From Clostridia bacterium (lineage in GTDB: Bacteria > Bacillota > Clostridia > Christensenellales > CAG-138), in assembly GCA_017393775.1 (NCBI GenBank), contig JAFOQN010000064.1, positions 1-35,718 of the forward strand: a stretch of 35,718 nucleotides of DNA, given 5' to 3'. How positions within the stretch are numbered: position 1 is the first letter of the stretch; every line of letters starts with the position of its first letter. The translations under genes were made by a program, and so were the position numbers. The notes under the pieces are model-generated. The model saw only the letters and a program-made list of their open reading frames with translations, had not been told where the DNA came from and ran no database searches. Of this stretch, positions 1 to 27,373 are shown one piece after another.

Positions 1-242
1 ATTTCATCCGGCGTAATCTTCCTGCCGCTTCCCAGCCAGGCTGCCGCAAAGACATAAGCAAAATACGCGTTGGTGGCCATAGGATTACCGGGGCCGAGAT
101 CGTCCGCTCGTGACAAGAGTCTTTTGTATTCCTTCTTGCCTTCCCGGATCGACTGCTCCGCAAGAGACGCACTAAATCTTTGCCGAATACTCTTTTTTAT
201 CATCGGTGCGAACAGCGACCAGTATATTCCGACGTATTTCAT
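1..242 (-). CDS. ATC-hydrolase (L-2-amino-thiazoline-4-carboxylic acid hydrolase) family protein, N-terminal part, runs off the window
   Basis: Hand translation from ATG at 242 (SD GGAGGAG) gives MKYVGIYWSLFAPMIKKSIRQRFSASLAEQSIREGKKEYKRLLSRADDLGPGNPM. It resembles the N-termini of the 3303-3950 and 3953-4576 paralogs (W.LF...K...A....K..Y..). Not in the ORF track. Confidence 0.7.
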   Translation of the reverse strand, partial: MKYVGIYWSLFAPMIKKSIRQRFSASLAEQSIREGKKEYKRLLSRADDLGPGNPMATNAYFAYVFAAAWLGSGRKITPDE

Positions 243-261
243 AGCTCCTCCCGCCCCCGTT

Positions 262-975
262 CTATTTCTTCACGCTGACCCAAAGGCCATTATCCGCCTT
301 TTTCAGTGCATACTCCGTTGCCATGGGATTCTTGTCGCCTACGATGCAGTAATCACAGCAGTCGGAGGTCACGCAGGTCCCTTCCCGGATCAAAGCCGCG
401 TGGATCGCCTGCATCGCCAGATGGTCGCAGTTGCACAGGACCGGCAGCACGTCCTCCATGTGATGGCGTTTCGCAAACTCTGCGTTCGGGCATTGGGTAA
501 AACTGTAGCGAATGATGCCGTTCTCCTTGTCGTAAGAGCAACTGCCCATTCGGAAGGACTCCGGGAACTTTTTGATCTCCTCGACCCGGATATCGTTGGC
601 TTTCTGAAAGATCTTACCGGCGAGTTTGTTGTCCGGCTTTCGATTCAGATCGAATAATTTGCCCATCAGCTCAAACGATCCGAAAAAGCTCTGATAGATG
701 TCCTGCTGCACTTCCTCCAACGGAGGCTTCTCCGGAATGACCGCGTACCAGGCAAAGATCAGGATCGGGTCGTAAATGCTGGTCGTGATCTTCAGATCCT
801 TCAGCGCCGGCTCGTCCTTTAAGTATTCGCAGTATTGAAGCTGTGCCTTCTCCCAGAGCCTGGCAGCCGTTTTTTCATCGTAATAGCGCTTCAGAAGCTT
901 CTGCACGCACTTTTTGGCGTTCTTTGAGTATGCCTTGTGCTTTGTCCGGTCGATCGGCAGGTCTTTTTCTTTCAT
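262..975 (-). CDS. ATC-hydrolase family protein (V4R/HNOX-like fold, Cys-rich C-terminus)
   Basis: Motifs FTQCPNAEF...LCNCDH...TCVTSDCCDYCI. Start moved to ATG 975 after SD AAGGAG. Confidence 0.8.
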   Translation of the reverse strand: MKEKDLPIDRTKHKAYSKNAKKCVQKLLKRYYDEKTAARLWEKAQLQYCEYLKDEPALKDLKITTSIYDPILIFAWYAVIPEKPPLEEVQQDIYQSFFGSFELMGKLFDLNRKPDNKLAGKIFQKANDIRVEEIKKFPESFRMGSCSYDKENGIIRYSFTQCPNAEFAKRHHMEDVLPVLCNCDHLAMQAIHAALIREGTCVTSDCCDYCIVGDKNPMATEYALKKADNGLWVSVKK

Positions 976-989
976 GTCCCGAAACTCCT

Positions 990-1670
990 TTACTTCTTGC
1001 AGCAGAAGCATCCGATTCCTTCCACCGCTGTGACTTCTGCCTCCGTATACAACGAGGAAAGCCGGGTCTGAAGGCTCTCTTTTGTCTCATAAGGCGGGGT
1101 GAAAAAGCCTTTCGGCTGGTAGAGATGCCTTATGAACCAATCCGTTCTCTTATGACCGCCCTGCACATAAAAGCAGCCGCAGAAGGTTCCACCCGGTTTC
1201 AGCACGCGGTAGGTTTCACGGTAAGCAGTCTCCTTGTCCGGGAAGGCGTGAAAGCCGTTCAGGGACAGCACGATATCGAAACTTTCATCTTCAAAAGGTA
1301 ATGCGCCGACGTCGCCCTGCAGGAAGGTGATATTCGTGAGGCTGAGTGCTTTCGCCTTTTCCTGCGCGGAAGCCATCATATTCTCCGAATAATCCAGGCA
1401 GGTGATGTCCGCGTCCGGAAGGTCCCGGTAGACCGGCATGGTCAACACGCCCGTCCCCACAGGGACTTCTAAAAGCTTTCCGGAGAAATTCTCCGGGATC
1501 CCCGACAGCGCCTTCTCCAGATACCGGAGATTTTTCTCGCCGTCCATGTTCCAGACGATCCGGCAGATTGCCTTGCCGGGGAGCGTGGAATACGTCATCA
1601 TCCCGTCATAGAAGGAGGCATTGCTGCCCGTAAGCTTATAGGCGCTTTTGATCTGTTCTTTTCCGGTCAT
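990..1670 (-). CDS. Class I SAM-dependent methyltransferase (UbiE-like)
   Basis: Motifs LEVPVGTG, CLDYS, GDVGALPFEDESFD, RVLKPGG. Confidence 0.9.
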   Translation of the reverse strand: MTGKEQIKSAYKLTGSNASFYDGMMTYSTLPGKAICRIVWNMDGEKNLRYLEKALSGIPENFSGKLLEVPVGTGVLTMPVYRDLPDADITCLDYSENMMASAQEKAKALSLTNITFLQGDVGALPFEDESFDIVLSLNGFHAFPDKETAYRETYRVLKPGGTFCGCFYVQGGHKRTDWFIRHLYQPKGFFTPPYETKESLQTRLSSLYTEAEVTAVEGIGCFCCKK

Positions 1671-1674
1671 TTGC

Positions 1675-2508
1675 TTATCCTCCGAAGACGATCTTTACGA
1701 TCTTCATCCTGACAAGCCCGTCACAGAAACGGATCATCAGCTTGTGGAACGCGCCGACACTGTTGTAAATATCCCGATAACCGCGCATGTAGCTTTTGGC
1801 AGTAACGGAAGCGAAGTGATCACTCCATCCTGCAAGCTCGGATTCATCCTCCAGGGAGAAGAAAGCACTTACGTCAGTGATCCCGGCTTCCTTCAGCCAG
1901 GTCTTGCGCATCAGCTTCGCACCGCGCTCGTTGCAGGAATCAAAGGCAAGCACGCCTCCGGGAAAATGCTCTGCCATCGCCTGAAACAGCTTTTTCACAT
2001 CCGCTGTCCTGAAATAATAGAAAACCCCCGCTGCAAAGAAGACTGCCCCGTCCGATGCGTCGATTTCATCCATCCATGAATAATCATTCAAATCACAGGC
2101 AAGATTTATCTCCCGCTCGCCCGCAGGAAGAAGCTCGTTTCGAACCTTAATCACATCCGGCAGATCAATGTTATAGCCCTTGCATTGCCCGTTATTGACC
2201 TTTGAAAAAGTATCGTCCAGACCGCAGCCGAGATTCACGACCGCAGCTTTCGGACTGTCTTTCAGATAGGCCTCGACTTCACAGCGAAGGTCATACTGCC
2301 GCTGTGCGACCTCAAGCGCGCCGAAGAGACCGGCGGCGGATTCCATTTTCTTTCGTTTCTCCGCAAAGTCGTAGTCCAGGCTGTCGCAGATGCGTTTCGC
2401 TTCCGGATCGGAAAACAGTTCCGGAAAATGCTCAGAGCAGACGAGCCGCCCGAACAGCGGAATGATCAGCGTTTCCTGCACCGTGTTTTTTTCAATGTGA
2501 TACTTCAT
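1675..2508 (-). CDS. Class I SAM-dependent O-methyltransferase (LCM/TcmP-like)
   Basis: VQETLIIPL N-terminus, VVNLGCGLD, NIDLPDVI, AGVFYYF. Confidence 0.88.
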   Translation of the reverse strand: MKYHIEKNTVQETLIIPLFGRLVCSEHFPELFSDPEAKRICDSLDYDFAEKRKKMESAAGLFGALEVAQRQYDLRCEVEAYLKDSPKAAVVNLGCGLDDTFSKVNNGQCKGYNIDLPDVIKVRNELLPAGEREINLACDLNDYSWMDEIDASDGAVFFAAGVFYYFRTADVKKLFQAMAEHFPGGVLAFDSCNERGAKLMRKTWLKEAGITDVSAFFSLEDESELAGWSDHFASVTAKSYMRGYRDIYNSVGAFHKLMIRFCDGLVRMKIVKIVFGG

Positions 2509-2517
2509 CCTTCCTCC

Positions 2518-3306
2518 TTATCCCAGCGCAACATCGAGCGCCATCATGATACTGAAACCGACCGCAAAAAACAGAACGCCGATATTGGAATGCTTTCCGG
2601 ACGACATCTCCGGGATCAATTCCTCCACGACCACATACAGCATTGCGCCTGCCGCAAACGACAGAAGATACGGCATCGCGGGAACCACCAGACTTGCGAT
2701 CAACACGGTCAACGCCCCGAAGATCGGTTCCACCGCACCGGACAGTACGCCGAGCCATAACGATTTCAGCTTGCTTTTTCCCTCGGCAAAAAGCGGCATG
2801 GAAACGATCGCGCCCTCCGGAAAGTTCTGGATCGCAATGCCGAGCGCAAGCGCAAGCGCTCCGCCCGCGGTGATATTGGCGGAACCCGAAAGCAGTCCGG
2901 CATAGACGACGCCGACCGCCATGCCCTCGGGGATGTTGTGCAGCGTCACGGCAAGCACCATCATCATGGTCCGGTCAAGCTTCGTTTTCGGTCCCTCGGT
3001 CTGCTCTGCCCTGTCGATGCTTCTGTGCAGATGCGGGATCACATGATCCAGCAAAAGCAGAAACAGAATGCCCGCCCAAAACCCGAGAAACGCCGGTAGA
3101 AAAGCCCACCTTCCCTTTTCTGCAGATTGTTCGATTGCGGGAACGATCAGACTCCAGATCGAAGCCGCCACCATCACGCCTGCAGCGAATCCCGTCAGCG
3201 CGCGCTGTATCCCGGTTTTGAGATCCTTTTTCAGAAAAAGTACGCACGCAGATCCGAAAGCCGTTCCGAAGAACGGGATCAGAAGTCCCCAAACAACCGT
3301 TTTCAT
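2518..3306 (-). CDS. ZIP (ZupT/GufA) family metal transporter
   Basis: GFAAGVM, LHNIPEG, IQNFPEG, SGAVEP, VEELIPE motifs. ATG 3306 overlaps the upstream stop (ATGA). Confidence 0.92.
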   Translation of the reverse strand: MKTVVWGLLIPFFGTAFGSACVLFLKKDLKTGIQRALTGFAAGVMVAASIWSLIVPAIEQSAEKGRWAFLPAFLGFWAGILFLLLLDHVIPHLHRSIDRAEQTEGPKTKLDRTMMMVLAVTLHNIPEGMAVGVVYAGLLSGSANITAGGALALALGIAIQNFPEGAIVSMPLFAEGKSKLKSLWLGVLSGAVEPIFGALTVLIASLVVPAMPYLLSFAAGAMLYVVVEELIPEMSSGKHSNIGVLFFAVGFSIMMALDVALG

Positions 3307-3950
3307 ACCTGTTTCAACAACCCTTTCTTCCGATATCCGCAATCGCAATAGGGTCCGCCGGAGGCAAGTGTGTATTGCCGCACAAAATCCGACGCGCCGC
3401 CCGCTTCGCTCATGGTGTAATCCAGTCGGCACATGGCGGGTACATACTCAAAAAGCCCCAATTCTTTCATCAGCGTACAGATGCCGCAGGTCGTAAATCG
3501 CGCTTCATAGCCGCTCCCGTCCGGATAGGGAAGATATTCCATGTTCCAGGAATAGGGGTTCCGGTCTGCCGCACGAAGAGCGGCGGTGCCCTTCATCCCC
3601 TGAAGATCCTTTTCGCTGAACTTCTTCTTTCCGCTCATCCGGCAGAACCACTTCATGGGAGCGGTCATCATGGATGCCCGATAGTACTCCGTTGTCTTTT
3701 CCACCGTCGGTCTTTCCGGCAGACTCAAAAGAAAAGAGGAGAGCATCGCACAATTGACAATGTTCATTTTGAATCGGTCTGCCTTCTCAAATTCCGGAAG
3801 GCGGCCGATGATCTCTTTATATTTCGGCTTTGCTTTTTCAGCGATTGCATTCGCCGTTTCAGGATTATATCCGTAAACTGACGATAAATGCTTCCGAAAC
3901 GATCCTCCAAACAGCGCCCACATGCCCCAGGGCATTCCCATGTATCTCAT
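3303..3950 (-). CDS. ATC-hydrolase family protein
   Basis: FTTCGIC...MCRLDY...TLASGGPYCDC motif set. Confidence 0.85.
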   Translation of the reverse strand: MRYMGMPWGMWALFGGSFRKHLSSVYGYNPETANAIAEKAKPKYKEIIGRLPEFEKADRFKMNIVNCAMLSSFLLSLPERPTVEKTTEYYRASMMTAPMKWFCRMSGKKKFSEKDLQGMKGTAALRAADRNPYSWNMEYLPYPDGSGYEARFTTCGICTLMKELGLFEYVPAMCRLDYTMSEAGGASDFVRQYTLASGGPYCDCGYRKKGLLKQV

Positions 3951-3952
3951 GA

Positions 3953-4576
3953 TCAGCCGCCTTTCACCACATGGAAGTCGCAGCAGTCTCCGCCGGCGCC
4001 CAGGGTCTTGGTCCGCAGGAGCTTCCCGCCCTTATACTCGATGGTCGGATAGTCCATCACGCACATATGGGGCGTCAGAAACATCAGGTTTTCCTGCTGC
4101 CCGATCTTGCAGACGCCGCATTCCCGGTGGGTCACATAGTATTCGGGCACCGACAGGTCGTAGGAAAAATCGAAGACCCAGTCCATTGGATATTCGCGCT
4201 TCTTCGAGCGCTCTGAACCGCGGACATATTTGTCGATCTCTTTCTGATCAAAGCAGTTCTTACCCTGATAGAAGCGCTTCATCATGTCACTTTTGCAAAG
4301 GGCATCGATCATGCCGTCGAAAACGTCCATCGTGATATGCTCGGGATCCGCCTTGTAATAAGAGAATCCATAGCAGGCCATATACATCACTGCTGCGAAC
4401 ATATTGTCCTTCATTGAACCGACGGAGGGCGTTCTTTTCACCATCGCTTCGTACTCTTTTTTGTGCTTCTTCTGAAACGCCCGCATGTCCAGTCCCGGGA
4501 CAGCCTTCGCCGTATATTCATAGACCGTCTTGCGGAACATGAGGGGGAACAGCGTTCCGATGATGCCAAGTTTCAT
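3953..4576 (-). CDS. ATC-hydrolase family protein
   Basis: ECGVC...MCVMDY...RTKTLGAGGDCCDF motif set. SD AAGGAG. Confidence 0.85.
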   Translation of the reverse strand: MKLGIIGTLFPLMFRKTVYEYTAKAVPGLDMRAFQKKHKKEYEAMVKRTPSVGSMKDNMFAAVMYMACYGFSYYKADPEHITMDVFDGMIDALCKSDMMKRFYQGKNCFDQKEIDKYVRGSERSKKREYPMDWVFDFSYDLSVPEYYVTHRECGVCKIGQQENLMFLTPHMCVMDYPTIEYKGGKLLRTKTLGAGGDCCDFHVVKGG

Positions 4577-4592
4577 TTTGGTTTCTCCTTCC

Positions 4593-5090
4593 TCATTTCA
4601 GGATCAGTGCCATGATCCCGGAGAGAATGGCGGCAAGAAGCGCCATCCCTGCGGTCCCCATGATCCATTTTTTCTTTTTGTCTTCTGCCGTGATATACGG
4701 TCTTAAATCTTCCGTACCCGGGATGATCCAGGCTTTCGTGTGTCCTACCCAGTACTCGTCTATCAAAAAACGGTCGATCAGATTCATAATGAACAGGATC
4801 ACAAAGCCTTGCCAGAAACCCGGCCAAAAGCCCCGAGCACCGTTTATCAGGTAAACGCAAATAAGCACATAGATCAGATACCCCGGAAGGCACAGGCTTC
4901 TGAAAAGGGAACTCCGTTTCCGGATCGCCTCCGCGGTCGTCAGACCAAGCTCGATGACGCGCTCCTGTACCTTTTGATCGTACAGATGGACCATGCCGAC
5001 GGCACCATTACGAATGCCGATCGCACAGATCAGATACTACAGCAAAAAGCCCAGTCCGAATCCTTCTGCGATCAGTTTGATTGCCAACAT
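4593..5090 (-). pseudogene. 4-TM membrane protein interrupted by an in-frame TAG at codon 18
   Basis: ATG 5090 after SD GAGGA reads MLAIKLIAEGFGLGFLL*YLICAIGIRNGAVGMVHLY. The TAG is at 5037-5039 and the frame continues into ORF 4593-4994. Confidence 0.75.
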
Positions 5091-5111
5091 ATTCGTTCCT
5101 CTGATATCGCC

Positions 5112-5618
5112 CTATCGAATCAATGTCACAAGCCACCCCACCAGAGCAGCGGGAATCAGTGCGAAGATGATGCCGGGAAACAGCATGCCCTTCGCGTGGA
5201 ACCACTTCTGGTGATAGGCTTTGTCCATATGCTCGGTGCCCTCCAGCCGGAACATGGGGAGATTGGCAAACAGCACCCAATCAAGGAAACAGGTGTCATA
5301 GATGCCGATCCATGCCATCAGGCCGAAAGTGAGTAAAAAGCCCTGCCAGAAGGTTTTCGCCCCGGCAATCAGGGAGCAGACCAGCAGAATACCGGTGAAA
5401 AGCAGCACGCCGAAGCTTTTGGTCAGGATCACTTTTTTTGACTTGTAGCTTACATCGACCCGCTCATGTGTTTTAAAGTATTCCTCTTGAATATCAGGCG
5501 GATAGTTATGAATCGCCGCAGGAGAGTGCTTCCTATCGCCGCTGGCTCCAAAGAAAACGATTGCTGTAAAGATCGCCGAAAAGGCGGCCATTTCGATCAG
5601 GATAACCCAGATACTCAT
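5112..5618 (-). CDS. 4-TM membrane protein of unknown function
   Basis: Hydrophobic helices, HNYPPDIQE and FWQGF...YDTCFLDW motifs, SD GGAGG. Confidence 0.8.
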   Translation of the reverse strand: MSIWVILIEMAAFSAIFTAIVFFGASGDRKHSPAAIHNYPPDIQEEYFKTHERVDVSYKSKKVILTKSFGVLLFTGILLVCSLIAGAKTFWQGFLLTFGLMAWIGIYDTCFLDWVLFANLPMFRLEGTEHMDKAYHQKWFHAKGMLFPGIIFALIPAALVGWLVTLIR

Positions 5619-5642
5619 GTTTAGACCTCCGTATCAATACTT

Positions 5643-6140
5643 TCAAAACAGGGTGCAGATCCACGCTGCCAGCGCCGAAACCGCAGGGAAGATCACACAC
5701 AGTTTGAGCAGTTGGCTCACAATGTTGAAGCCGTACTTTCTTCCCTCCATCACATGTGCCGCCTCGGGGTAATAATGCTGGAAGAAGTGGAACTTCAGAA
5801 GCAGGAAGTTGTCGATGAGGGTCATATCGCAGATCTTATAGATCGTGAAGATCAGCACGAATCGCAAAAAGAACTGCCAGAATGTAAATCCGCTTCTGAA
5901 GCCGTCCCAGATGGCGATCACTCCTACGCCGAGGATCATCATAACGCTGATGATAAACAGGGTCCATCCGATTGCCCGGGCCCCGTAGAAGAGTTCCTGC
6001 TCTCGCTGGATCAGCACTTCTCTCGCTTCCTTCGGAGCAGAAGAAAAGAATTTATTATCCTGAATAAACGCCACGCAGGATATCAGCATCAAAGCCATCG
6101 CCGCGCAGAATACGATTGCCAGAAAAATTGTCAACAGCAT
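5643..6140 (-). CDS. 4-TM membrane protein of unknown function
   Basis: Hydrophobic helices with FWQFF...CDMTLIDN. Related to the two downstream genes. Confidence 0.8.
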   Translation of the reverse strand: MLLTIFLAIVFCAAMALMLISCVAFIQDNKFFSSAPKEAREVLIQREQELFYGARAIGWTLFIISVMMILGVGVIAIWDGFRSGFTFWQFFLRFVLIFTIYKICDMTLIDNFLLLKFHFFQHYYPEAAHVMEGRKYGFNIVSQLLKLCVIFPAVSALAAWICTLF

Positions 6141-6179
6141 AAAGCCTCATTCCCCCCTTTTCTCGAGATCCATAGCTTT

Positions 6180-7097
6180 TTATGGCGCCGTGTGCTCCTT
6201 CACCTTGCGGATCATCATGTCCCAGCCGTCCCTGCCCTCTTGGCAGATGGGGAAAACCGGATAGCAGTGGAACATGCCCTCGCCGACGATCATCTCATAC
6301 TGCGCGCCATATCGCTGCATGGCGGCTTCGAAACTGGGCGCACAGGCGTACAGCGTTTCGTCGGAGCCGTAGATAAAGGTCACAAAGGGACAGTTTTGGA
6401 AGTTGCCCTTTTGCAGCCAGATCATATACTCCGGCACGCTGTCATCCCCGTGGCGCATGATCTCCACCGCCGTCTTCATGTACTGGGCGGGAATCGCCAC
6501 GTCCTTTTTGTCCAGCTCCAGCATCCGCTCCCATTCCACCTGGGAGGCGACGCAGGTTCCCGGCGAAATGGTCATGATATATCCGGGCATGGGTGTATCC
6601 GGCGCAGCTTCGTTGATGTACGGCACCATGCCCAGCGCCAGATTGCCGCCGGAGGAGGTGCCGAGCACGGAAATATTCTTCGAATCATACGTCTTCAACA
6701 TCTCCCTATACGTCCCATGGATCATCTCATATGCCTTGGTCAGCGGGTAGTCCGTGCAAAGGGGATAATAGGGGACGAACACGTCGAGACCGGTCTCCCT
6801 GGCAAAGCGAAGAGCTTTTTTGACGGAGCCAGGACGGGGCGCAGAGATCATACCTCCGCCGATGATGAAAAGATTGGCCCGATCCGTCCTCTTTTTATGG
6901 ATGAGCTGCAGCACCGGAAAGCCGTTCACCGTGGTTTGGCGGATGTCGAACGCGTCGTCCCGAAGCTTCGGGATTTTGTTCTTTGCGTTTTGCTTTCGGC
7001 GGTTCTCCAGCAGCTCCTCTGTGCTCACGGAAAGCCAGCGCTTCTTGATGTTCACCGCCTTGACCAGTCGCTTCAGAATTTCATATTGTAAAGACAT
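6180..7097 (-). CDS. Alpha/beta hydrolase (HSL-like esterase)
   Basis: IIGGG oxyanion motif, GTSSGG nucleophile elbow, C-terminal GEGMFHCYP His motif. Confidence 0.88.
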   Translation of the reverse strand: MSLQYEILKRLVKAVNIKKRWLSVSTEELLENRRKQNAKNKIPKLRDDAFDIRQTTVNGFPVLQLIHKKRTDRANLFIIGGGMISAPRPGSVKKALRFARETGLDVFVPYYPLCTDYPLTKAYEMIHGTYREMLKTYDSKNISVLGTSSGGNLALGMVPYINEAAPDTPMPGYIMTISPGTCVASQVEWERMLELDKKDVAIPAQYMKTAVEIMRHGDDSVPEYMIWLQKGNFQNCPFVTFIYGSDETLYACAPSFEAAMQRYGAQYEMIVGEGMFHCYPVFPICQEGRDGWDMMIRKVKEHTAP

Positions 7098-7134
7098 ACC
7101 GCCCCTCCCTTTCCTCGATAGTCCCTCCCGTTTT

Positions 7135-7857
7135 TCATTGCCGTGTCCCCTGTCGCTCCGCTTTTTGAGAAAAGAGCAGCAGCCCCATATACATCCATAG
7201 ATTCCCCCAGCTGATCCATGCTGCGGTCATAGCGTTTCTCAGCGCGGTCTCCGGCAGGAGTTTCAGCAGCATGATCAGGGCCATACCCACCGCCGGACAA
7301 AAGACCCAGCACCATTTCGGATAGGGCGTGAAGCCCCTCGTAAAGGCCGAAATATGAGCCACGTGCTGCACGACCCAGAACAGGAAGAACAGGATCATGG
7401 CCGGCAGCAGGAAGTATGCGCCGAAGCGGACGGACAGGGCAAGCGCCGTTTCGGGGCTGACAAGCGCCATGTGTTTATAGAAGAACACGCAGGCGAGGCA
7501 AGGCACGTGGACGCCGCAGCCGGCAAAAGCCAGGGTGCCAAGGATGCCTGCCCGATAGAGATGGGCGTGCCTTCCGGAGTAAGGCGCGATGAGGCGATAG
7601 AGGGCAAAGTAGCTCAGGGCCTCCAGGGGGATGCCCCAAAAGCCCAGAAATGCGGAAAAGAAGATGCGTCTATCCGAAAGGTCGCGATAGGCGGACAGGA
7701 ATCCTTCCATTCCGGACACGGAAGGATCATGGACGCCCCAGCCCAGGAGCATATCCCCCACCAGCGTCAGACATGCGCCGAAGATGCCGATGCACATGAG
7801 CTTGCGGATGCGGGGCCAATCCAAGGCGCCGCCGATGCCGATGTCGTTATAGCTCAT
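7135..7857 (-). CDS. Multi-TM membrane protein, DUF6796-like
   Basis: About 6 TM helices, LVGDMLLGW, intramembrane His (GCGVHV). Family call from recall. Confidence 0.7.
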   Translation of the reverse strand: MSYNDIGIGGALDWPRIRKLMCIGIFGACLTLVGDMLLGWGVHDPSVSGMEGFLSAYRDLSDRRIFFSAFLGFWGIPLEALSYFALYRLIAPYSGRHAHLYRAGILGTLAFAGCGVHVPCLACVFFYKHMALVSPETALALSVRFGAYFLLPAMILFFLFWVVQHVAHISAFTRGFTPYPKWCWVFCPAVGMALIMLLKLLPETALRNAMTAAWISWGNLWMYMGLLLFSQKAERQGTRQ

Positions 7858-8611
7858 ATTGTGCCTCCCGCAGCTCGCCCTTTCGTTCCATGGCGTTGAG
7901 CAGCACCAGCCCCAGCATCAGCACCAGGGCGTGGCCGAAGGATTCCGTCCCATGATCCAGCTGGTCGATGGGCCAGGGCAGCTGGGCGAAAAGGTTGCCA
8001 ATGACACCGGGCAGCATCATGGGGTTGCAGAAGGTGGCGAGGACCCGTTGGGCCGTGGTCTTCAGGGGGATGCGCCGCGTCCACACCAGCACCAGCATGA
8101 CCACGGTCAGCCCCACGTCGCAGAGGATATAGGATATGAGCATGGGCGCCGCGTTGGCATAGAAGACGCGGTTCGCTATGTCCGCGGCGGTCTGCATGTC
8201 GCCGTAGCTTTGATAGACATATTTGAAGACCAGAGCAACGATCATGAACACGGCATGGACGTAGGCCCAAGCCACCGTGCCGGTCACGTAAGCCACCCGG
8301 AACAGGCGCAACCACTTTTGATCCTTTGGCTGTTTTAGGTGGAGCTTCAACAGGCCATACATCCGATGAAAGCCCATATAATAAAGCATGGTGCCGAAGA
8401 AACCGCAGAGAATGCTCAGCACCATGCGCCAGGTGCCCATCTCGAGATAGGCCACCCGGACCATGAAGCCAAACTGATCCGTACCGACGCGGCCCATGGC
8501 CGGTTCCCTGCCGGTGGCGGCGAACAGGAAGTCCCCGACCACATACAGAAGGCATCCGGCGATGCCCAGCAGAAGCAACCTTTGAGACCGTTCCTTCATC
8601 ATGCGGTTCAT
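7847..8611 (-). CDS. Multi-TM membrane protein, DUF6796-like paralog
   Basis: VVGDFLF and AYVHA motifs parallel the downstream gene. ATG 8611 follows SD AAGGAG. Confidence 0.7.
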   Translation of the reverse strand: MNRMMKERSQRLLLLGIAGCLLYVVGDFLFAATGREPAMGRVGTDQFGFMVRVAYLEMGTWRMVLSILCGFFGTMLYYMGFHRMYGLLKLHLKQPKDQKWLRLFRVAYVTGTVAWAYVHAVFMIVALVFKYVYQSYGDMQTAADIANRVFYANAAPMLISYILCDVGLTVVMLVLVWTRRIPLKTTAQRVLATFCNPMMLPGVIGNLFAQLPWPIDQLDHGTESFGHALVLMLGLVLLNAMERKGELREAQYEL

Positions 8612-8612
8612 G

Positions 8613-9242
8613 TCATTCTCCTTTCGTCGCAAGGATCGCAAGCCAGGGCTTTTGCGGGTGATGCGCCGTCTTCACCTGAGCAAAGCCTGCCGCTTGCAGG
8701 GCGGCTTCCAGCTCTTCGGCGGTATAGGTATGCATGCCGTCGATGATCGTTTCAAACTGCTTTCCGGTTTTGTCCATGCCGTCGGATTCGTTGACGATGA
8801 GGAACCAACCGCCGGGCTTCAGAATGCGGCAGACCTCCGAAAAGCTCTTCACGGGACCCGGCCAGAAGTAGACGGTTTCGAACGCGGTGGCAAGATCGAA
8901 CGTCCCATCCCGGAAAGGGAGCGCGGACACGTCACCCTGCATCGCCGTGCAGCGTCCGGCCCCGATCATGATCCGGTTATATGCCGCAGCTTTTTTCACG
9001 GACAGCTCGGAATAGTCGACCGCCGTCACATGCGCTTTTGGAAACATTTTCAGCAGTTCGCCGGCGTTTCGCCCGCCTCCGCAACCTAAGTCCACCGCAT
9101 TTTCCGGAGTCATTGCAGGCAAATGTGTGAAGCCCCAGTCTGCCAGTTTCGCATGCCCGGAGTTCATCGTACCGAGCATCATTTTTCCCAAGAAACCTTC
9201 CGGCTTCCGCGTTTGACTGAAAAAGTCTTTAGCAATACTCAT
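8613..9242 (-). CDS. Class I SAM-dependent methyltransferase
   Basis: VDLGCGGG, AVDYS, GDVSALPF, AFETVYFW, RILKPGG. Confidence 0.9.
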   Translation of the reverse strand: MSIAKDFFSQTRKPEGFLGKMMLGTMNSGHAKLADWGFTHLPAMTPENAVDLGCGGGRNAGELLKMFPKAHVTAVDYSELSVKKAAAYNRIMIGAGRCTAMQGDVSALPFRDGTFDLATAFETVYFWPGPVKSFSEVCRILKPGGWFLIVNESDGMDKTGKQFETIIDGMHTYTAEELEAALQAAGFAQVKTAHHPQKPWLAILATKGE

Positions 9243-9396
9243 TTCCCATCCTCCTTAAATGCTCTTGCTGCGCTCCTTCTTCCAGGAGTTCGCTTATCCG
9301 TGCGTATGTATCGTTCTGTATCTCTGCAGATAAAGTCGGAAAATATTTTTGATAGCGGCTGATTGCCACCAGTTCTTCAGGCGTGTATTGACTCAT
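9229..9396 (-). pseudogene. Truncated gene remnant (55 aa), probably the N-terminus of a further ATC-hydrolase-type protein
   Basis: ATGA-coupled start with SD AAGGAG. Reads MSQYTPEELVAISRYQKYFPTLSAEIQNDTYARISELLEE, then runs into the next gene's RBS. Family assignment is recall only. Confidence 0.55.
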
Positions 9397-9986
9397 CTTG
9401 CTTTCTCCTTCCTAAATCTGAAGTACCCTTCCAGACCCAGGTCGCTGGTCTTATGAACTGTTGTAAATCCCCGCCGGTTGGCCTCCTCTTCAAATTCTTT
9501 GAGCGTAAAGAGGGCCTCTTCTGCGTGTCCCCAGTGCAGCAAGGCGTCCACAATATGGATGCAACGCTTCGACAGATCGGCGACGTAGATGCTCCCGCCA
9601 TCTCGCAGCACCCGGCGGCTTTCGTCAAAGAAGATCCGCCAGCCCTCCACGTGATGCAGGATGCAGAAATCCAGCACTGCGTCAAAGCTTCCGTCGGGAA
9701 AACGGCTCAGATCGTCTGCACTGCCCTCTACAAAGCATGCGCTGGGCAGGTTTCGCCCTCTGGCAATCTCCAGCTGCTCCGGCATGATGTCAAGCCCGGT
9801 ATAGCTGTGCGGCTGCTCTGCGGTGATCAGGGAGGCAGCGTAACCGTTGCCGCAGCCGCCCTCCAGAATGTCCAGCCCTTTTATGACAAGGCCGAATTTT
9901 TTAAAGGTCTTGAGTTCCATCTTCTCGATGTACCATTTCCGCCAGCCCATTTGCATGGCGTCAAATTCTTTCATGCTGAGTTTCAT
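9393..9986 (-). CDS. Class I SAM-dependent methyltransferase
   Basis: ILEGGCGNG, GLDIM, FDAVLDFCILHHV, RVLRDGG. ATGA-coupled start at 9986. Confidence 0.88.
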   Translation of the reverse strand: MKLSMKEFDAMQMGWRKWYIEKMELKTFKKFGLVIKGLDILEGGCGNGYAASLITAEQPHSYTGLDIMPEQLEIARGRNLPSACFVEGSADDLSRFPDGSFDAVLDFCILHHVEGWRIFFDESRRVLRDGGSIYVADLSKRCIHIVDALLHWGHAEEALFTLKEFEEEANRRGFTTVHKTSDLGLEGYFRFRKEKAR

Positions 9987-10591
9987 CTTATCACCTTCTT
10001 CATCACCGCTACGGCACAAGGGATACTCCCGTTCGCTAAAGTAATCTGCACGTCCGAATACCCGGCATCCCGGAAAAACCGTTCGTAGCTCTCCACGGTA
10101 AACTGCCGCTTGAAATCCGCCCCGGCTTTTTCGACCGCATTGGCAAAGCCGCTTGTTTTCCCTTTCGTGTCTTTATTCATGTAGGTCGGAATGATCAGCA
10201 TTCCGCCGTCTTTGCATACACGGTTCAGTTCATAAAGCGCCGCGAGCGGATTGTCCAGCAGGTGGATCACGTTGCCCGCTACGACCTTATCGAAGCTTCC
10301 GTCCGGATAGGACAGCGCGGTAATATCCGCCTTCGAAAACGTGATGCTTTGAAAAACAGCGCAGTTTTTCTTTGCCTTGTTCAGCATCTTTTCGGAATAA
10401 TCCGTCGCTGTCAGCTGTCTGCACTTCGGCGCGATCACCGCGCTTAACAGCCCCGTCCCACAGGCGCATTCCAGCACCGTATTATCAGGTTCAATCAGCG
10501 AAGATACGATCCTCTTCAGCTTCTGATGCGTCTTCCTGTTAATGACATTGACGAAAATGTCATATGCACCGGCCACATTATCCCAGAACAC
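9983..10591 (-). CDS. Class I SAM-dependent methyltransferase (first gene of the island operon)
   Basis: VLECACGTG, ATDYS, FDKVVAGNVIHLL. GTG start with SD AGGAGG. Confidence 0.9.
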   Translation of the reverse strand: MFWDNVAGAYDIFVNVINRKTHQKLKRIVSSLIEPDNTVLECACGTGLLSAVIAPKCRQLTATDYSEKMLNKAKKNCAVFQSITFSKADITALSYPDGSFDKVVAGNVIHLLDNPLAALYELNRVCKDGGMLIIPTYMNKDTKGKTSGFANAVEKAGADFKRQFTVESYERFFRDAGYSDVQITLANGSIPCAVAVMKKVIR

Positions 10592-10604
10592 TCTTTTGCC
10601 TCCT

Positions 10605-10620
10605 GTTAGCAGCAGCTAAC
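10605..10620. promoter_or_regulatory. Operator palindrome GTTAG-N6-CTAAC (site 2, next to the RBS)
   Basis: GTTAGCAGCAGCTAAC. A second copy lies 45 bp away. Confidence 0.75.
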
Positions 10621-10649
10621 CATTGCCCCGAAAGAAAAACCCGCGGCGG

Positions 10650-10665
10650 GTTAGTCCTCGCTAAC
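10650..10665. promoter_or_regulatory. Operator palindrome GTTAG-N6-CTAAC (site 1, over the transcription start)
   Basis: GTTAGTCCTCGCTAAC directly downstream of the -10 box. Confidence 0.75.
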
Positions 10666-10666
10666 T

Positions 10667-10695
10667 ATTATAGCTGATTGGTTGTCGTTTTTCAA
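10667..10695 (-). promoter_or_regulatory. Sigma-A promoter of the island operon
   Basis: The minus strand reads TTGAAA-17 nt-TATAAT. Confidence 0.85.
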
Positions 10696-10829
10696 TATGC
10701 GTCTGAAAAATGTTTGTCATAGATTCCTTTGGCTTGAGATGCCGCAAACGGATATTGCAAATAACATCATCTTTTTTCACTTTTCATAATCCGGAAAACC
10801 AGATACGGAGGGCGTTTCCGGTTCGAAAA

Positions 10830-10852
10830 TTTACTGTATTCTTTACTGTATT
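10830..10852. repeat. Tandem 11-bp direct repeat, candidate integrase arm-type site
   Basis: TTTACTGTATT at 10830-10840 and 10842-10852, about 140 bp inside the att site. Confidence 0.55.
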
Positions 10853-10990
10853 TTGGATATTTTTGCGTGTTTTTCACGGTCCGATTCGTCCAATCAGTAC
10901 CATCGTGTAAATCAAAAAAGTGCCTAAAATAGAGACTTTTCTTGGTTTTCCCAGCGTTTCTCGACTTTTCCGGATTTTGGATTTCGAGAA

Positions 10991-11035
10991 CTGTTAACCG
11001 AAGGGTTGTAAGTTCGAGTCTTACCTGGGGAGCCA
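10991..11035 (+). tRNA. tRNA-Asn(GTT) 3' fragment (att-site duplication, not a functional tRNA)
   Basis: Anticodon loop CTGTTAA, CCGAA, T-arm GTAAG-TTCGAGT-CTTAC, acceptor strand CTGGGGA-G-CCA. The upstream GAGAA cannot pair with CCGAA and there is no D-arm. Confidence 0.88.
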
Positions 11036-11040
11036 ATTGG

Positions 11041-11086
11041 AACAAATCCGAACCTGAAGCTTGTAGGCGATGGGTTCGGATTTGTT
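11041..11086. repeat. 14-bp perfect inverted repeat after the tRNA fragment (terminator or recombination-site-like)
   Basis: AACAAATCCGAACC-N18-GGTTCGGATTTGTT. Confidence 0.65.
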
Positions 11087-11133
11087 GTTTATCTCGGCGC
11101 TTCTGAAATAAAACCAAAACGGAGGAAAAAGAG

Positions 11134-11429
11134 ATGAACACGAATGAATTGGGTTGGATCGGACGATACGGCAAAAAATTGCTTGCCATGCTCAGGGAAC
11201 ATGATCCGGACAAGTACACTTCCTGCTGTTCGAGAGAAAGTCGCAAAAATACCTGCTCGCGCAGAACAAGTACATCAGCGAGCGCATTTGGGATCTGACG
11301 ATGAAACCGGCAAAGAAGAGCGGCATCAGCGAAGAACTGAAGCGCCGCGATCAGCTGCGATGGGTGCAGGAAGTCAATTCCTATCGGAATATGGCGGAAG
11401 AATCGGTGCCTGCCGAACACTTTGATTAA
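11134..11429 (+). pseudogene. tnpV: TnpV-family protein, frameshifted
   Basis: SD GGAGG, then MNTNELGWIGRYG...EHDPDKYT. After a 1-bp deletion near 11221 it continues LLFER..KYL...GISEELKRRDQLRWVQEVNSYRNMAEE, the TnpV C-terminal signature. Confidence 0.75.
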
Positions 11430-11441
11430 GAATCGATACAA

Positions 11442-11471
11442 AACAGCAGGTGGCAAACGCTTCCTGCTGTT
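11442..11471. terminator. Hairpin between convergent tnpV and gpx, likely intrinsic terminator
   Basis: AACAGCAGG...CCTGCTGTT stem with short T tracts. Confidence 0.6.
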
Positions 11472-11495
11472 CTTCTCTTTACAGTGTATTTCTTC

Positions 11496-12041
11496 TTAAA
11501 GAATTGCCTCGACAGCTTTTTTGACGTCCGCCATGTCGACGGTCGGCTCGAAACGGGCGATGACCTTGCCCTCGCGGTCGATCAGGAACTTCGTGAAGTT
11601 CCACTTGATATATGCTCTGTCGCCGAACTGCTTGTTGTTCATGTTCGCGAACTTTTCGAGCATGGCGTTCTTGATGCCCTTGCCGAAGCCCACGAACGGC
11701 TTTTCCGTCGCGAGGAACACGAACAGCGGATCGGCAGTCTCGCCGTTAACGTCGATCTTCTTAAACTGCGGGAAGTCCGTGCCGAATTTCAGCGTACAGA
11801 ACGAATGGATCTCTTCCTCGCTGCCGGGCGCCTGATTGGCAAATTGATTGCAGGGGAAATCGAGGATTTCGAACCCCTTGTCCTTGAGCTCCTTATACAT
11901 CGCCTCGAGCGGATCGTAATGCGGTGTGAAGCCGCAGCCCGTCGCTGTATTGACGATCAGCAAAACCTTGCCTGCATATTCCGAGAGACTGACGTCGTTT
12001 CCTTTTCTGTCCTTTACCGTGAAATCATAGACCGTTTTCAT
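11496..12041 (-). CDS. gpx: Glutathione peroxidase family protein (Cys-type)
   Basis: GKVLLIVNTATGCGFT, FPCNQF, IKWNFTKFL. ATG 12041 after SD AAGGGAG. Confidence 0.95.
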   Translation of the reverse strand: MKTVYDFTVKDRKGNDVSLSEYAGKVLLIVNTATGCGFTPHYDPLEAMYKELKDKGFEILDFPCNQFANQAPGSEEEIHSFCTLKFGTDFPQFKKIDVNGETADPLFVFLATEKPFVGFGKGIKNAMLEKFANMNNKQFGDRAYIKWNFTKFLIDREGKVIARFEPTVDMADVKKAVEAIL

Positions 12042-12074
12042 TCTTGATCTCCCTTCTGATTCATTATCGTAAGT

Positions 12075-12103
12075 ATTATACACAAGGCGATTCGGTATGT
12101 AAA
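12075..12103 (-). promoter_or_regulatory. Sigma-A promoter of gpx
   Basis: TTTACA-17 nt-TATAAT with an extended TG. Confidence 0.7.
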
Positions 12104-12201
12104 CTGTTTCCTGTCGGTTTGTCTCTTTCCGGAACCCGCGCGATTCTTTCATGAACATACGCCCGATAAGAGTCCTGCCGACGACCGGCAGGGCGCCGTA
12201 T

Positions 12202-12348
12202 TTACAATTCAAGCAGAAATGGATTATGTTCGAAGCGCTGCATCCTGGCTTTGATCTGTTCGGCAACGGAAAGCGTGTGTTCCCCTTCGAACGCGATCGT
12301 ATGGACCGTTCCCATGGCGGGGAACACTTTCTGAACGGAGGTCGTCAT
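12202..12348 (-). pseudogene. apbE: N-terminal remnant of an ApbE-like FAD:protein FMN transferase
   Basis: ATGA-coupled start reading MTTSVQKVFPAMGTVHTIAF (ApbE-like F.AMGT strand). Stops after 48 codons. Confidence 0.55.
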
Positions 12349-12761
12349 TCTTCCATCCTTTCGGTCCTGTGAAACAGGGAAATCAGATATGTCACGATGC
12401 CGCACACGACGAGCGCTCCGCCGGTGATCCAGTAGACGAGCGTCAGCGGATTGGTCGTACCATAGATCTCGAGCGCGCCCGAAACGAGACTGCCGACGGT
12501 CAGCGTCGCGATCCCCGCATGATACACGCCGCGGGCAAAGCGGTTCGGGTACGGCGCATGCAGCATCGTGATAAGCATGAGAGGCAGCACGCCGAGCATA
12601 AGCGGGAACACGAAGGCATAGATCATGCCGTAGGAATACACGCCGTGGCTGAACACTTCGTAGACCGCGCCGAAAGCCACGCAGAACAGGGTCGCAAAAA
12701 GGTCAATGAGAATCCGCTTTTGCTGCGGATTCAGCTTACGTGCCGTAACCAATGTACACAA
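12345..12761 (-). CDS. 4-TM membrane protein of unknown function
   Basis: FGAVYEVFSHGVYS, GIATLTVGS, LEIYGTTN. TTG start overlaps the NAGPA gene end, SD AAGGAG. Confidence 0.8.
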   Translation of the reverse strand: MCTLVTARKLNPQQKRILIDLFATLFCVAFGAVYEVFSHGVYSYGMIYAFVFPLMLGVLPLMLITMLHAPYPNRFARGVYHAGIATLTVGSLVSGALEIYGTTNPLTLVYWITGGALVVCGIVTYLISLFHRTERMEE

Positions 12762-13707
12762 TGTCGCTCACGCTCCTTTCGCTGGATCTGTTTTTGCCGT
12801 TAGCAGGGTTGTTGACGATATTTCCAAGAAACACCATGGATGAAGAGCCGCCGCCGTCGAGATTGTAGGCGGTTTGTGCCCCGAGCGACTGCAAAAACGC
12901 CGCGAGTTCATGGAGGGAAAGTCCGTCGCTCTCGCTCGTACGTCCGTCCGCAACGACGAACAGATAATGCCCGTTTTCCAAAGTTCCGATCGCCGTCCGC
13001 GGATTGCTCGCCATCGCCCTTCCTACCTCTTCTTTTTCCGTAACGGCAATCTCGCCGTTCTCAACAAGCGCGGGTCCGAAAGACAATACGTTCCGGGCGC
13101 CGGACGCAAGCAGTTCCTCTGCCGTAATGTCATCCTCGCTGATGATGCGGAACGTACCATCCGCGTAGATCACCAGGTCCTCGCTGCCGCTTGATGTGTT
13201 GCGGTACAGCACGCCGTTGCGGATCACATAGCCGGACCGCTGTGCGCCGTAGTAATCGCCGTTGATCGCAAGGATCGCGTTGACCGAAGCCGCCATCGTC
13301 GAAGTCTTTTCCGTTATGTTGCGTCCATAGGTGTTTTCGGCAAGCGCCGTCTTCAGATAGTCCGCCGAGGAAAGCTCAATATCCGCAACGTAGACCGTCG
13401 TTTCGAGCAGGCGATATGTCGTAAGCTGTACGAAGATATTCTCATCCGAATAGGTCGTATCGGTCGTGACCGCTTCCGCCGTCAGAGACGTTTCGGCCGG
13501 TTCCTCCGCCGCTTCGGGTTCTTTCGCAGCGATCGTGATCATTTCCGTTTCCTCCGCGTTTTGTATGACGGCTGCTTTTGTATCCGGTTCGCTTGCGGCG
13601 GTTGCATAAACGCGCTTGATCAAAAACGTATCCGCCAGAAGATAGCCGGTGAACAGAAAAAGCGCCAGCCCGAACAGGACCGCAAAACCGTACCTGGGTA
13701 TCTTCAT
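12736..13707 (-). CDS. Membrane-anchored phosphodiester glycosidase (NAGPA/EpsL-like)
   Basis: N-terminal TM helix, LAINGDYY, SFGPAL, NPRTAIG, ADGR, AYNLDGGGSS. Confidence 0.9.
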   Translation of the reverse strand: MKIPRYGFAVLFGLALFLFTGYLLADTFLIKRVYATAASEPDTKAAVIQNAEETEMITIAAKEPEAAEEPAETSLTAEAVTTDTTYSDENIFVQLTTYRLLETTVYVADIELSSADYLKTALAENTYGRNITEKTSTMAASVNAILAINGDYYGAQRSGYVIRNGVLYRNTSSGSEDLVIYADGTFRIISEDDITAEELLASGARNVLSFGPALVENGEIAVTEKEEVGRAMASNPRTAIGTLENGHYLFVVADGRTSESDGLSLHELAAFLQSLGAQTAYNLDGGGSSSMVFLGNIVNNPANGKNRSSERSVSDIVYIGYGT

Positions 13708-19819: not shown

Positions 19820-20080
19820 TCAGTCCTGCTTTCTTGCGCGCTCGGCGATGTCAGGCCAGCGTTTCAAAATGTACTGCACCGCATTGCGTGAATGCGGGAT
19901 CATGCAGTCAGTACAGTTTTTGATGCCGGATTCCATGTAGGTAAAGTTGCCGCCGCATTTGTCGCCCAGCATGTACAGCGGGCAGTAGCAGAAGAGGCAG
20001 TTGAAATCCTCGGGATGGTCCGTCTTGTGACACGGGAAATACTTGCAGTCGGTGTTGTTGATAAAAGAATCGCTGTTCAT
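19820..20080 (-). CDS. Cysteine-rich small domain protein (cob-operon associated)
   Basis: CKYFPCH...FNCLFCYCPLY...CGGN...KNCTDCMIPH. Confidence 0.85.
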   Translation of the reverse strand: MNSDSFINNTDCKYFPCHKTDHPEDFNCLFCYCPLYMLGDKCGGNFTYMESGIKNCTDCMIPHSRNAVQYILKRWPDIAERARKQD

Positions 20081-20721
20081 TTTGCTGCTCCTCTCGTTTC
20101 ATCAATTATGTACAACAGCGCGTTGATGATGCACGCCGCAACATTGCTGCCGCCCTTTCTGCCGCGGGCGACGATGCAGGGCACGTCGGTTTCGATGATC
20201 AGCTCCTTCGACGCGACGACGTTCACAAAGCCTACCGGCACGCCGACGATGAGTCTGGGACGGTAGCCGTTGTCGATCAATTCTCTTAACCGGATCAATG
20301 CCGTCGGCGCATTGCCGATCGCAAAGATCACGTTTTCGCCTAAGGCTGCCGCCTTATCCATGCTGACGCGCGCACGGGTCACGCCCTGTTCCTTTGCTTC
20401 CCTTGCAACGTCTTCGTCGGACATGAAGCAGAACGCTTCGCATCCGAGCTTCATTGCCGTGCGTTTATTGATCCCCGCGAGCGCCATCTGCGTATCGGTG
20501 ACGATCGCAGCGCCGCCCTTCAGCGCGTCGATGGCAAGCTGTACGGCGTTTTCGGAGAAATACAGATTATCGGCGTAGTCGAAATCCGCCGTTGTATGGA
20601 TCACACGCTTCAGGATCGGCGCTTTTTCGGGGTCGATCTGCCGATCGCCGAGTTCCTTTGTGATGATGCGAAAGCTCTCGCGCTCGATCTCCATCGGCGC
20701 AATCTTTTGGATCTCCGTCAT
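20077..20721 (-). CDS. cbiC: Cobalt-precorrin-8 methylmutase (CobH/CbiC)
   Basis: [35 protein letters not shown]. Confidence 0.95.
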
Positions 20722-27275: not shown

Positions 27276-27296
27276 TGGTCTGCTCCTTTCGTAAAC

Positions 27297-27362
27297 CCTG
27301 TCATCCTGAGGAACACCGTGACGAAGGATCTTTGGATTCTTCGCTTCGCTCAGGATGACGGG
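27297..27362. repeat. REP-like palindromic element (GTCATCCTGAG...CTCAGGATGAC)
   Basis: 11-bp perfect terminal inverted repeats at 27300-27310 and 27349-27359 with internal GCGAAGCGAAG...GATC. It fills the only sizeable intergenic gap in the cob operon. Confidence 0.8.
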
Positions 27363-27373
27363 ATGCATCTCTG

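Follow-up and report, generated by a model that had tools for sequence, protein, structure and literature searches.

A predicted metal-repressed operon of recurring methyltransferase, ATC_hydrolase-family and membrane protein genes on a modular array of Clostridia

Which signal switches on a long row of diverged enzyme and membrane protein genes that all share a single promoter, and what could a gut bacterium gain from them? The question is raised by positions 1-10695 of a 35,718-bp stretch of DNA from a Clostridia bacterium (GenBank assembly GCA_017393775.1, contig JAFOQN010000064.1), which we call the window. The window is an entire contig (C65), whose left edge is an assembly end, and belongs to a metagenome-assembled genome (MAG; G000) of 1.91 Mb on 220 contigs, with a completeness of 69% and a G+C content of 56%. 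G, C and L are used here as labels for genomes, contigs and retrieved loci, and g1-g16 for the genes of the array. We assign a probability of roughly 0.6 to the reading that 1-10695 is one operon of a small metal regulon of the DtxR/MntR family, carried on a mobile array. The sequence comparisons give good support to the prediction of a metal-repressed operon which belongs to a small DtxR/MntR-type regulon including FeoAB, on a probably mobile modular array which is widespread but patchy among Clostridia of gut and rumen.

The region comprises 16 open reading frames (ORFs), every one on the minus strand behind one strong promoter (Table 1). They encode five S-adenosylmethionine (SAM) methyltransferases, four ATC_hydrolase proteins, two DUF6796 proteins, three membrane proteins with a DxxxxD motif, one esterase and one ZIP transporter. 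The original prediction, which was made from the letters of the sequence alone, had described at least 17 co-oriented genes or remnants from about six families. The co-orientation and, by Pfam assignment, the number of families are borne out, while the gene count has to be corrected to 16. Neighbouring genes overlap or are separated by no more than 39 nt, with ATGA start/stop overlaps at g1/g2 and g11/g12; the predicted spacing of about 40 bp or less is therefore right except for g2-g3 (150 nt) and g8-g9 (117 nt). The latter "gap" is the 5' part of g9, which an in-frame TAG separates from the rest of the gene; at this codon, number 18, the intact homologue L100:12118-12609 has Phe. Judged by its sequence g9 would be either a pseudogene or a gene that restarts at Met33. 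No gene remnant was detected by tblastn in the 150-nt g2-g3 spacer or in 10592-11500. With 18-32% identity the paralogues of the array are as highly diverged as had been stated. The single promoter heading the array was also recovered as TTGAAA-17-TATAAT with 11 of 12 consensus matches, and the impression that internal terminators are missing agrees with the scan, in which terminator-like sites showed no excess (12 versus 13.5 expected from shuffled sequence). The mean G+C content of the first 11 kb is about 53%, compared to 56% for the genome. The last gene, g16, runs into the contig end; its homologue in a congener, which is 76% identical, is a full-length ATC_hydrolase protein.

The leader of the array contains two 16-bp palindromes of the form GTTAG-N6-CTAAC. 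In the direction of transcription the -10 box is followed by one base, the palindrome GTTAGCGAGGACTAAC (OP1), a short G+C hairpin with a T-rich tail, the palindrome GTTAGCTGCTGCTAAC (OP2), AGGAGG and the GTG start codon of g1. A hairpin with a T-run between OP1 and OP2 was found in 13 of 20 distinct operator pairs. Related hairpin leaders were seen in L011-L022, L058, L092, L096, L098 and G000:C57, and a hairpin also stands just 5' of the feoB operator on contig C124. At L065:878-1075 and the matching place in L062 a 66-aa HTH_17-like ORF (E 2.6e-5, below the cut-off) is located between OP1 and the hairpin, and the short leaders elsewhere may be the remains of such a gene. As a rival regulator this ORF was rejected, since it has no homologue in G000.

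The palindromes connect the array to other loci of the same genome. A weight matrix built from related sites was used to scan the 1.91-Mb assembly at a threshold of at least 14 bits, which gave nine sites confined to three loci. Two of them head the array on C65, two head a gene group on C57 (DUF3793, a shortened ZIP and an HMA gene), and five lie on C124 at an HMA gene, a dtxR-like gene, feoA and feoB (feoA-feoA-feoB). The dtxR-like gene is divergent from feoA-feoA-feoB, and one of the C124 operators falls between the -35 and -10 boxes of the feoA promoter. The metal-dependent repression that had been proposed for the array is thus supported, at the level of sequence, by operators common to the array and the dtxR-like/feoAAB locus. 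In the second operator-headed operon, G000:C57 (L024) 664-1995, the ZIP is cut to its last 97 aa. This operon looks like a decayed counterpart of the array head that is usual in the genus, and the window would then hold a second array.

The dtxR-like gene encodes a protein of 133 aa in which both Fe_dep_repress (PF01325, 37.7 bits) and Fe_dep_repr_C (PF02742, 60.5 bits) score above the cut-off, and it is the only member of the DtxR/MntR family detected in the assembly. In the alignment with DtxR from C. diphtheriae the residues Met10, Cys102, Glu105 and His106 are all kept, while MntR from B. subtilis carries Asp8 and Glu99 where our protein keeps the Met and Cys of DtxR. By the known selectivity rule these primary-site residues point to Fe2+. 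Fe2+ is therefore the most likely signal suggested by the sequence, with Mn2+ as the second candidate.

Operator and gene families recur far beyond the window. DNA matches to the array region were found in 26 of the 27 other genomes of the genus, with 65-77% identity and in a different order, and protein-level maps of congeners likewise show arrays of the same families whose order is shuffled. A stricter pattern, GGTTAGC-N4-GCTAAC, is present in 17 of 28 genomes of the genus with two to seven sites each, compared to one hit overall for the reversed control. These sites mark dtxR/feoAAB loci and the heads of arrays, where an operator pair is usually followed by DUF3793, a g14-like methyltransferase and ZIP. 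An ORF of about 843 aa has its end immediately 5' of the array operator pair in three congeners (L013:14412-16943, L015:13976-16507 and L016:6773-9310); judged from its N-terminal MxCxxC motif only, it would encode a heavy-metal P-type ATPase.

The search of a DUF6796 alignment against one genome per species revealed 54 loci (758,554 bp) from rumen and gut Clostridia. They derive from MAGs labelled Christensenellales, Oscillospiraceae, Lachnospiraceae and Erysipelotrichaceae, from a few bins with other labels, and from one isolate, Ruminococcus sp. YE282 (L060). These loci contain 68 strict operator sites, while each of four control palindromes gave none or one, and at least one site is present in 42 of the 54. 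A gene of the array families starts within 200 nt downstream of 47 of 83 operator sites. DUF6796 is the first gene behind 21 of these 47 sites, followed by DUF3793 (8), esterase, LCM and other methyltransferases (4 each), ZIP (3), DtxR (2) and a g7-type protein (1). The arrays also encode hydrolases of the metallo-beta-lactamase fold, alpha/beta hydrolases, a membrane methyltransferase of the PEMT type, reductases of the ApbA type, ABC pairs with an exporter fold and MacB/FtsX pumps. Two sub-blocks persist in the window, L098, L093, L092 and L086, namely the DUF6796 pair and ATC(g11)-[HMA]-ZIP-LCM-MT(g14). Distant genomes with DUF6796 contain 5-18 operator sites compared to one to three control sites, clustered at the array loci, and in two distant near-complete genomes regions of about 35 kb combine 6-11 operator sites with two DtxR paralogues, FeoB genes and the same families. 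These regions, L111/L112 (G218:C36:24000-62000) and L113/L114 (G130:C12:110000-149999), are made up of many operator-headed operons and also encode exporter-fold ABC pairs, a MacB-type pump, an enolase and a His_Phos_1 protein. Of 301 genomes sampled from the class, no more than 11 have a DUF6796 match above the cut-off. Because the families recur together across rumen and gut Clostridia, operator and arrays being joined in 42 of the 54 DUF6796 loci, an objection from non-recurrence fails.

Upstream of the array promoter lie a tRNA-Asn fragment, which is a candidate attachment-site repeat, and a TnpV-like gene. At least seven genomes contain the block of these two with 84-88% identity; six belong to the genus and one, G032, to another genus of the same family. 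Of the two congeners that share the neighbouring non-coding stretch, one carries a different cargo, which judged from translations only comprises a large ORF for a glycoside hydrolase together with genes for a transporter, an esterase and a regulator. The intact tRNA-Asn is located on contig C28, where it is flanked by a mobilizable element (L025 190-4986) with genes for a tyrosine integrase, a MobA/VirD2 relaxase, NikA/MobC and ParB-like proteins. A 1.8-kb segment of the array is 94% identical in the MAG locus L081, but the adjoining cobalamin genes are only 65-69% identical. In the window the cobalamin operon (20077-27506, minus strand) encodes CbiC, two CobQ/CbiA-type amidotransferases, a CbiJ-methylase fusion, a tetrapyrrole methylase and CbiG; in L081 its 65-69% identical version stands directly upstream of the 94% identical array segment. 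The geometry makes it plausible that the array is cargo at the far end of a mobilizable element on C28. The claim that the array is island-borne thus has the tRNA-Asn repeat and the integrase and relaxase at the intact tRNA-Asn on its side, but stays at plausible only since the two contigs are unjoined. No integron integrase was detected by Pfam in window positions 1-13000, and the gaps within the array do not exceed 39 nt except for the two explained above.

The assignment to ATC_hydrolase (PF14196; cut-off 28.1 bits) has scores of 76.8, 80.3 and 44.1 bits for g10, g11 and g15 and 91.4 bits for the g16 homologue. These proteins are only 18-25% identical to one another. In an alignment of 32 sequences C155, C174, D177 and C202 are invariant, which we refer to as the Cys3-Asp site. 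The best matches of the g11 model (pLDDT 93.3, a per-residue confidence score) are H-NOX, Bet3/TRAPPC3 and the V4R phenol-sensor domains of PoxR, MopR and DmpR. A publication also connects the ATC hydrolase, HNOB and V4R domains, including their three conserved cysteines (PMC5847659). Accordingly, the ligand of the ATC-family proteins may be a small hydrophobic molecule held at a metal site, with or without being hydrolysed.

The DUF6796 model (g5; pLDDT 91.5) is a bundle of about seven transmembrane helices, for which Foldseek found nothing in the PDB at E ≤0.1. In the g7-g9 family R93, D105 and D110 are invariant, the two aspartates forming the DxxxxD motif. Among 25 members of this family there is no consistent Pfam match, and the protein-atlas clusters are named only "hypothetical protein"; 655 cluster representatives were found at E ≤1e-3 among 1.84 billion proteins. 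The methyltransferases pass the Pfam cut-off for Methyltransf_11/25 or LCM. The g12 protein is assigned to ZIP by Pfam (77.3 bits, cut-off 35.1) and scores 125.5 bits against the ZupT equivalog (cut-off 252); among the array proteins no NCBIfam family was reached at its cut-off. A complex prediction for g7 and g15, which were chosen since membrane-ATC-membrane triads recur, had a score of 0.00 and counts neither way.

RNA-library contigs from four ruminant metatranscriptome runs match scattered parts of the operon with 93-100% identity and span the junctions g16/g15, g15/g14, g13/g12 and g6/g5. They are weakly compatible with transcription across these junctions, as the contigs do not show a single transcript and the libraries may hold DNA. 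In the same four runs no contig covered 10450-10836, the promoter and leader, which is not evidence of absence.

The coordinates of all array features are summarized in Table 1. Behind the TnpV-like gene a glutathione-peroxidase gene (11496-12266, minus strand) has its own promoter with 11 of 12 consensus matches at 12103..12075, without an operator site.

Table 1. Promoter, leader, genes and upstream neighbourhood of the array in the window.
Feature	Position	Strand	Basis or remark
Sigma-70-type promoter TTGAAA-17-TATAAT, 11/12 matches	10667..10695 (read 10695..10667)	-	consensus match
Operator OP1 GTTAGCGAGGACTAAC, begins 2 nt past the -10 hexamer	10650..10665	.	18.7 bits
Terminator-like hairpin AACCCGCCGCGGGTT with T-rich tail, between OP1 and OP2	10628..10652	-	terminator scan
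Operator OP2 GTTAGCTGCTGCTAAC, immediately 5' of the AGGAGG ribosome-binding site (10599-10604)	10605..10620	.	23.1 bits
g1 class I SAM methyltransferase, 202 aa, GTG start	9983..10591	-	Methyltransf_11 E 3e-22
g2 class I SAM methyltransferase; ATG overlaps g1 stop (ATGA)	9393..9986	-	Methyltransf_11 E 8.7e-20
g3 class I SAM methyltransferase	8613..9242	-	Methyltransf_11/25 E 4.1e-21
g4 DUF6796 membrane protein	7847..8611	-	Pfam E 3.6e-45
g5 DUF6796 membrane protein	7135..7857	-	Pfam E 2.3e-67
g6 alpha/beta-hydrolase esterase, HSL-like	6180..7097	-	Abhydrolase_3
g7 small membrane protein, no Pfam family	5643..6140	-	invariant R93, D105, D110
g8 membrane protein, paralogue of g7 and g9	5112..5618	-	no Pfam family
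g9 third DxxxxD paralogue, TAG-interrupted	4593..5090 (open part 4593-4994)	-	TAG at 5037-5039
g10 ATC_hydrolase family	3953..4576	-	Pfam E 3.9e-21
g11 ATC_hydrolase family	3303..3950	-	invariant C155, C174, D177, C202
g12 ZIP (ZupT-like) divalent-metal importer; ATG overlaps g11 stop	2518..3306	-	Pfam
g13 LCM/TIGR00027-type SAM methyltransferase	1675..2508	-	Pfam
g14 class I SAM methyltransferase	990..1670	-	Methyltransf_11/25 E 2.4e-24
g15 ATC_hydrolase family; probable start 975	262..975 or 262..1011	-	Pfam
g16 N-terminal 80 aa of fourth ATC_hydrolase, gene cut by contig end	3..242	-	homologue in congener
Non-coding stretch beside the repeat (about 260 nt conserved in two congeners)	10753..10990	.	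DNA comparison
45-nt copy of tRNA-Asn(GTT) 3' end, candidate attachment-site repeat	10991..11035	+	100% match to G000:C28:4912-4956
Frameshifted TnpV-like gene	11134..11425	+	weak match; intact homologue L008:1501-1797 TnpV E 4.4e-24

Several known systems resemble the array in part. With the DtxR/IdeR and MntR regulons it shares a two-domain repressor (Fe_dep_repress and Fe_dep_repr_C), palindromic operators that overlap promoters, metal-uptake targets (FeoAB and ZIP) and a regulator gene divergent from a target. The Met/Cys/Glu/His site of DtxR is kept in the regulator of the array genome; the SH3-like third domain of DtxR is absent from its 133 aa. The half-sites GGTTAG/CTAACC are similar to those of the DtxR iron box, although the spacing is 6 bp instead of 1. 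In contrast to both regulons, most of the genes found here, those for methyltransferases, ATC_hydrolase proteins, DUF6796 and the small membrane proteins, are not known members. The founder of PF14196 is the L-ATC hydrolase AtcB from Pseudomonas. The proteins g10, g11, g15 and the g16 homologue pass PF14196 and have a conserved Cys cluster, but they are part of a metal regulon and not of a cysteine-salvage operon, and an activity on thiazoline rings is only putative here. As the fold of the g11 model resembles H-NOX and V4R from the H-NOX/V4R/Bet3 group, the "ATC hydrolase" proteins of the array may be ligand-binding metalloproteins of that fold rather than hydrolases. In the metal-sparing sets controlled by Zur or MntR, enzymes that are not transporters are derepressed together with importers under metal limitation, as predicted here; each member of those sets, however, replaces a known metal-dependent enzyme, and no such counterpart is evident for the array. 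Finally, integron cassette arrays are also long, co-oriented and placed behind one promoter, and their content and order vary between close relatives. The array described here differs in lacking IntI and attC, in its overlapping or at most 39-nt-spaced genes and in being drawn from a few recurring families.

The following mechanism would account for these observations. Under metal-replete conditions the sole DtxR-like repressor, encoded on C124, would bind both 16-bp palindromes. OP1 covers the transcription start, and its occupation should occlude the promoter, while OP2, just before the ribosome-binding site, would act as a second block. When metal becomes scarce, the operon would be derepressed along with FeoAB and the DUF3793/ZIP/HMA operon. 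The array would be horizontally mobile and modular, probably the cargo of an element integrated at tRNA-Asn, with members that are shuffled between genomes while the sub-blocks DUF6796-DUF6796 and ATC(g11)-ZIP-LCM-MT(g14) persist. Its products are suggested to form a membrane-associated battery of cytoplasmic SAM methyltransferases, Cys3-Asp H-NOX/V4R-fold proteins, an esterase, the seven-transmembrane DUF6796 proteins and the small DxxxxD proteins. This battery would take up or handle organic metal chelates and alter them by methylation and hydrolysis, and ZIP would capture the metal.

Taken alone, this uptake and alteration of chelates is a tentative and rather unlikely step, though it is the function we favour and comes near to the one put forward in the original prediction. 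It is drawn only from membership in the regulon, the co-conservation of ZIP, the ligand-binding fold and the classes of enzymes present. A still more specific version is distinctly unlikely. In this version a mobile system would free iron, or a different divalent metal, from organic chelates with no siderophore being made; xenosiderophores, thiazoline-type ligands and plant polyphenols are candidates for these chelates. Membrane uptake or handling would fall to DUF6796 and the DxxxxD proteins, and binding or opening of the ligand to the ATC-family proteins. Chelating groups would be disabled by the methyltransferases and esterases, and the freed metal would be imported by ZIP and FeoAB.

A number of results weigh against a chelate-processing operon of a metal regulon. 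The regulation is inferred from sequence throughout, and the terminator-like hairpin between the operators leaves it without explanation how transcription reaches g1. The stricter operator pattern is missing from 11 of 28 genomes of the genus, and 12 of the 54 DUF6796 loci have no strict operator, several of these being short contigs which start inside an array. Some loci from seemingly distant taxa are MAG bins and possibly mis-binned, and the array and the integrase lie on separate contigs. The fold matches of g11 score low (E of about 2e-3 in Foldseek; Z of 5.4-4.3 in VIA, with ties), those of DUF6796 by VIA-align are generic seven-transmembrane bundles only (best Z 9.4), and the array methyltransferases reach no NCBIfam subfamily cut-off. 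The best NCBIfam model for the regulator is the E. coli-type MntR, NF008273, with 91.5 bits (cut-off 153), while the DtxR equivalog NF053665 gives 48.6 bits (cut-off 290), below the MntR score; neither cut-off is reached. In the distant genome G218, furthermore, operator sites adjoin an enolase gene and head an operon which includes a His_Phos_1 gene of the phosphoglycerate-mutase superfamily, an arrangement more in keeping with manganese sparing than with the processing of chelates.

The last two points would fit a manganese-sparing response of the MntR type, in which the array would supply substitutes for housekeeping enzymes that need no metal or carry a different one. A manganese-independent phosphoglycerate mutase under MntR control is known from S. 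aureus, and the layout xTAGC-N4-GCTAx of the operator resembles the MntR box of E. coli. The primary metal site, however, has the Met and Cys of DtxR and not Asp8 and Glu99 of B. subtilis MntR, the core targets are feoA-feoA-feoB, and no housekeeping counterpart is evident for five diverged methyltransferases, DUF6796 and the DxxxxD proteins. We regard manganese sparing or enzyme substitution as unlikely in itself, but as a serious rival to chelate processing. To a similar, low degree the genes could lack any coherent pathway and simply have piled up as unrelated accessory genes behind a strong conditional promoter on a mobile element, in the manner of an integron. The shuffled order among congeners, the signs of decay (the nonsense codon in g9 and the shortened ZIP on C57), the patchy taxonomic spread and the near-identical segment amid diverged flanks could all be read in this way. 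Random accumulation does not easily explain why the same few families stand behind the same operator in 42 of 54 loci and why sub-blocks persist in the window, L098, L093, L092 and L086; besides, an integron integrase is missing, and attC sites would not fit into gaps of 39 nt or less.

Two other explanations concern the leader and the missing left end. That the palindromes and the hairpin act at the RNA level, as an attenuator or riboswitch of the 5' leader, and not as protein operators on DNA is very improbable, even if each palindrome can form an RNA hairpin and a terminator-like hairpin with a T-run accompanies 13 of 20 pairs. The leader has no match in Rfam 15 at the gathering threshold, and at E ≤10 only chance rows for microRNAs and small nucleolar RNAs appear. 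The stem GTTAG/CTAAC is fixed and the centre varies, hence there is no covariation, and fixed arms with a variable centre fit a protein operator better than an RNA structure. Moreover, the copy between the -35 and -10 boxes of feoA is untranscribed, and the sites co-localise with the dtxR-like gene across the genus. Since the contig ends inside g16, the array could also consist of tailoring enzymes of a cluster for a nonribosomal peptide synthetase (NRPS), a polyketide synthase (PKS) or a ribosomally synthesised and post-translationally modified peptide, the core of which lies past the left edge. This we consider extremely improbable, mainly because the g15-g16 pair closes the array in G007, where a LysR-type gene on the opposite strand comes next, and because very long multi-module ORFs are missing. 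The 66 related loci (926,009 bp) contain 13 ORFs above 800 aa. The only one of them scanned with Pfam, a 903-aa ORF in L100, is an FtsX/MacB-type permease, and none was checked against NRPS or PKS models; from the N-terminal sequence only, three others are read as CopA-like ATPases and one, of 2441 aa, as a protein typical of conjugative elements. The earlier statement that no NRPS or PKS is present thus holds for the Pfam-scanned proteins of the window and agrees with the array end in G007, but in the related loci the Pfam scan covered one of the 13 long ORFs.

In the literature searches made we found no published description of these arrays or of this operator. There was no paper on DUF6796, the sole paper on DUF3793 is unrelated, the portions of the ATC hydrolase literature covered contained nothing on such arrays, and nothing relevant was found on DtxR and FeoB in Clostridia or on DtxR in gut genera. 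As the operator is simple and specific and Ruminococcus sp. YE282 is a cultured carrier, the prediction of a metal-repressed array is directly testable. Gut communities are shaped by metal limitation, and little is known about the ways in which strict anaerobes that lack siderophores deal with it. The predicted regulon would give a physiological context to DUF6796, DUF3793, the clostridial ATC_hydrolase proteins and a small membrane protein family without a Pfam entry.

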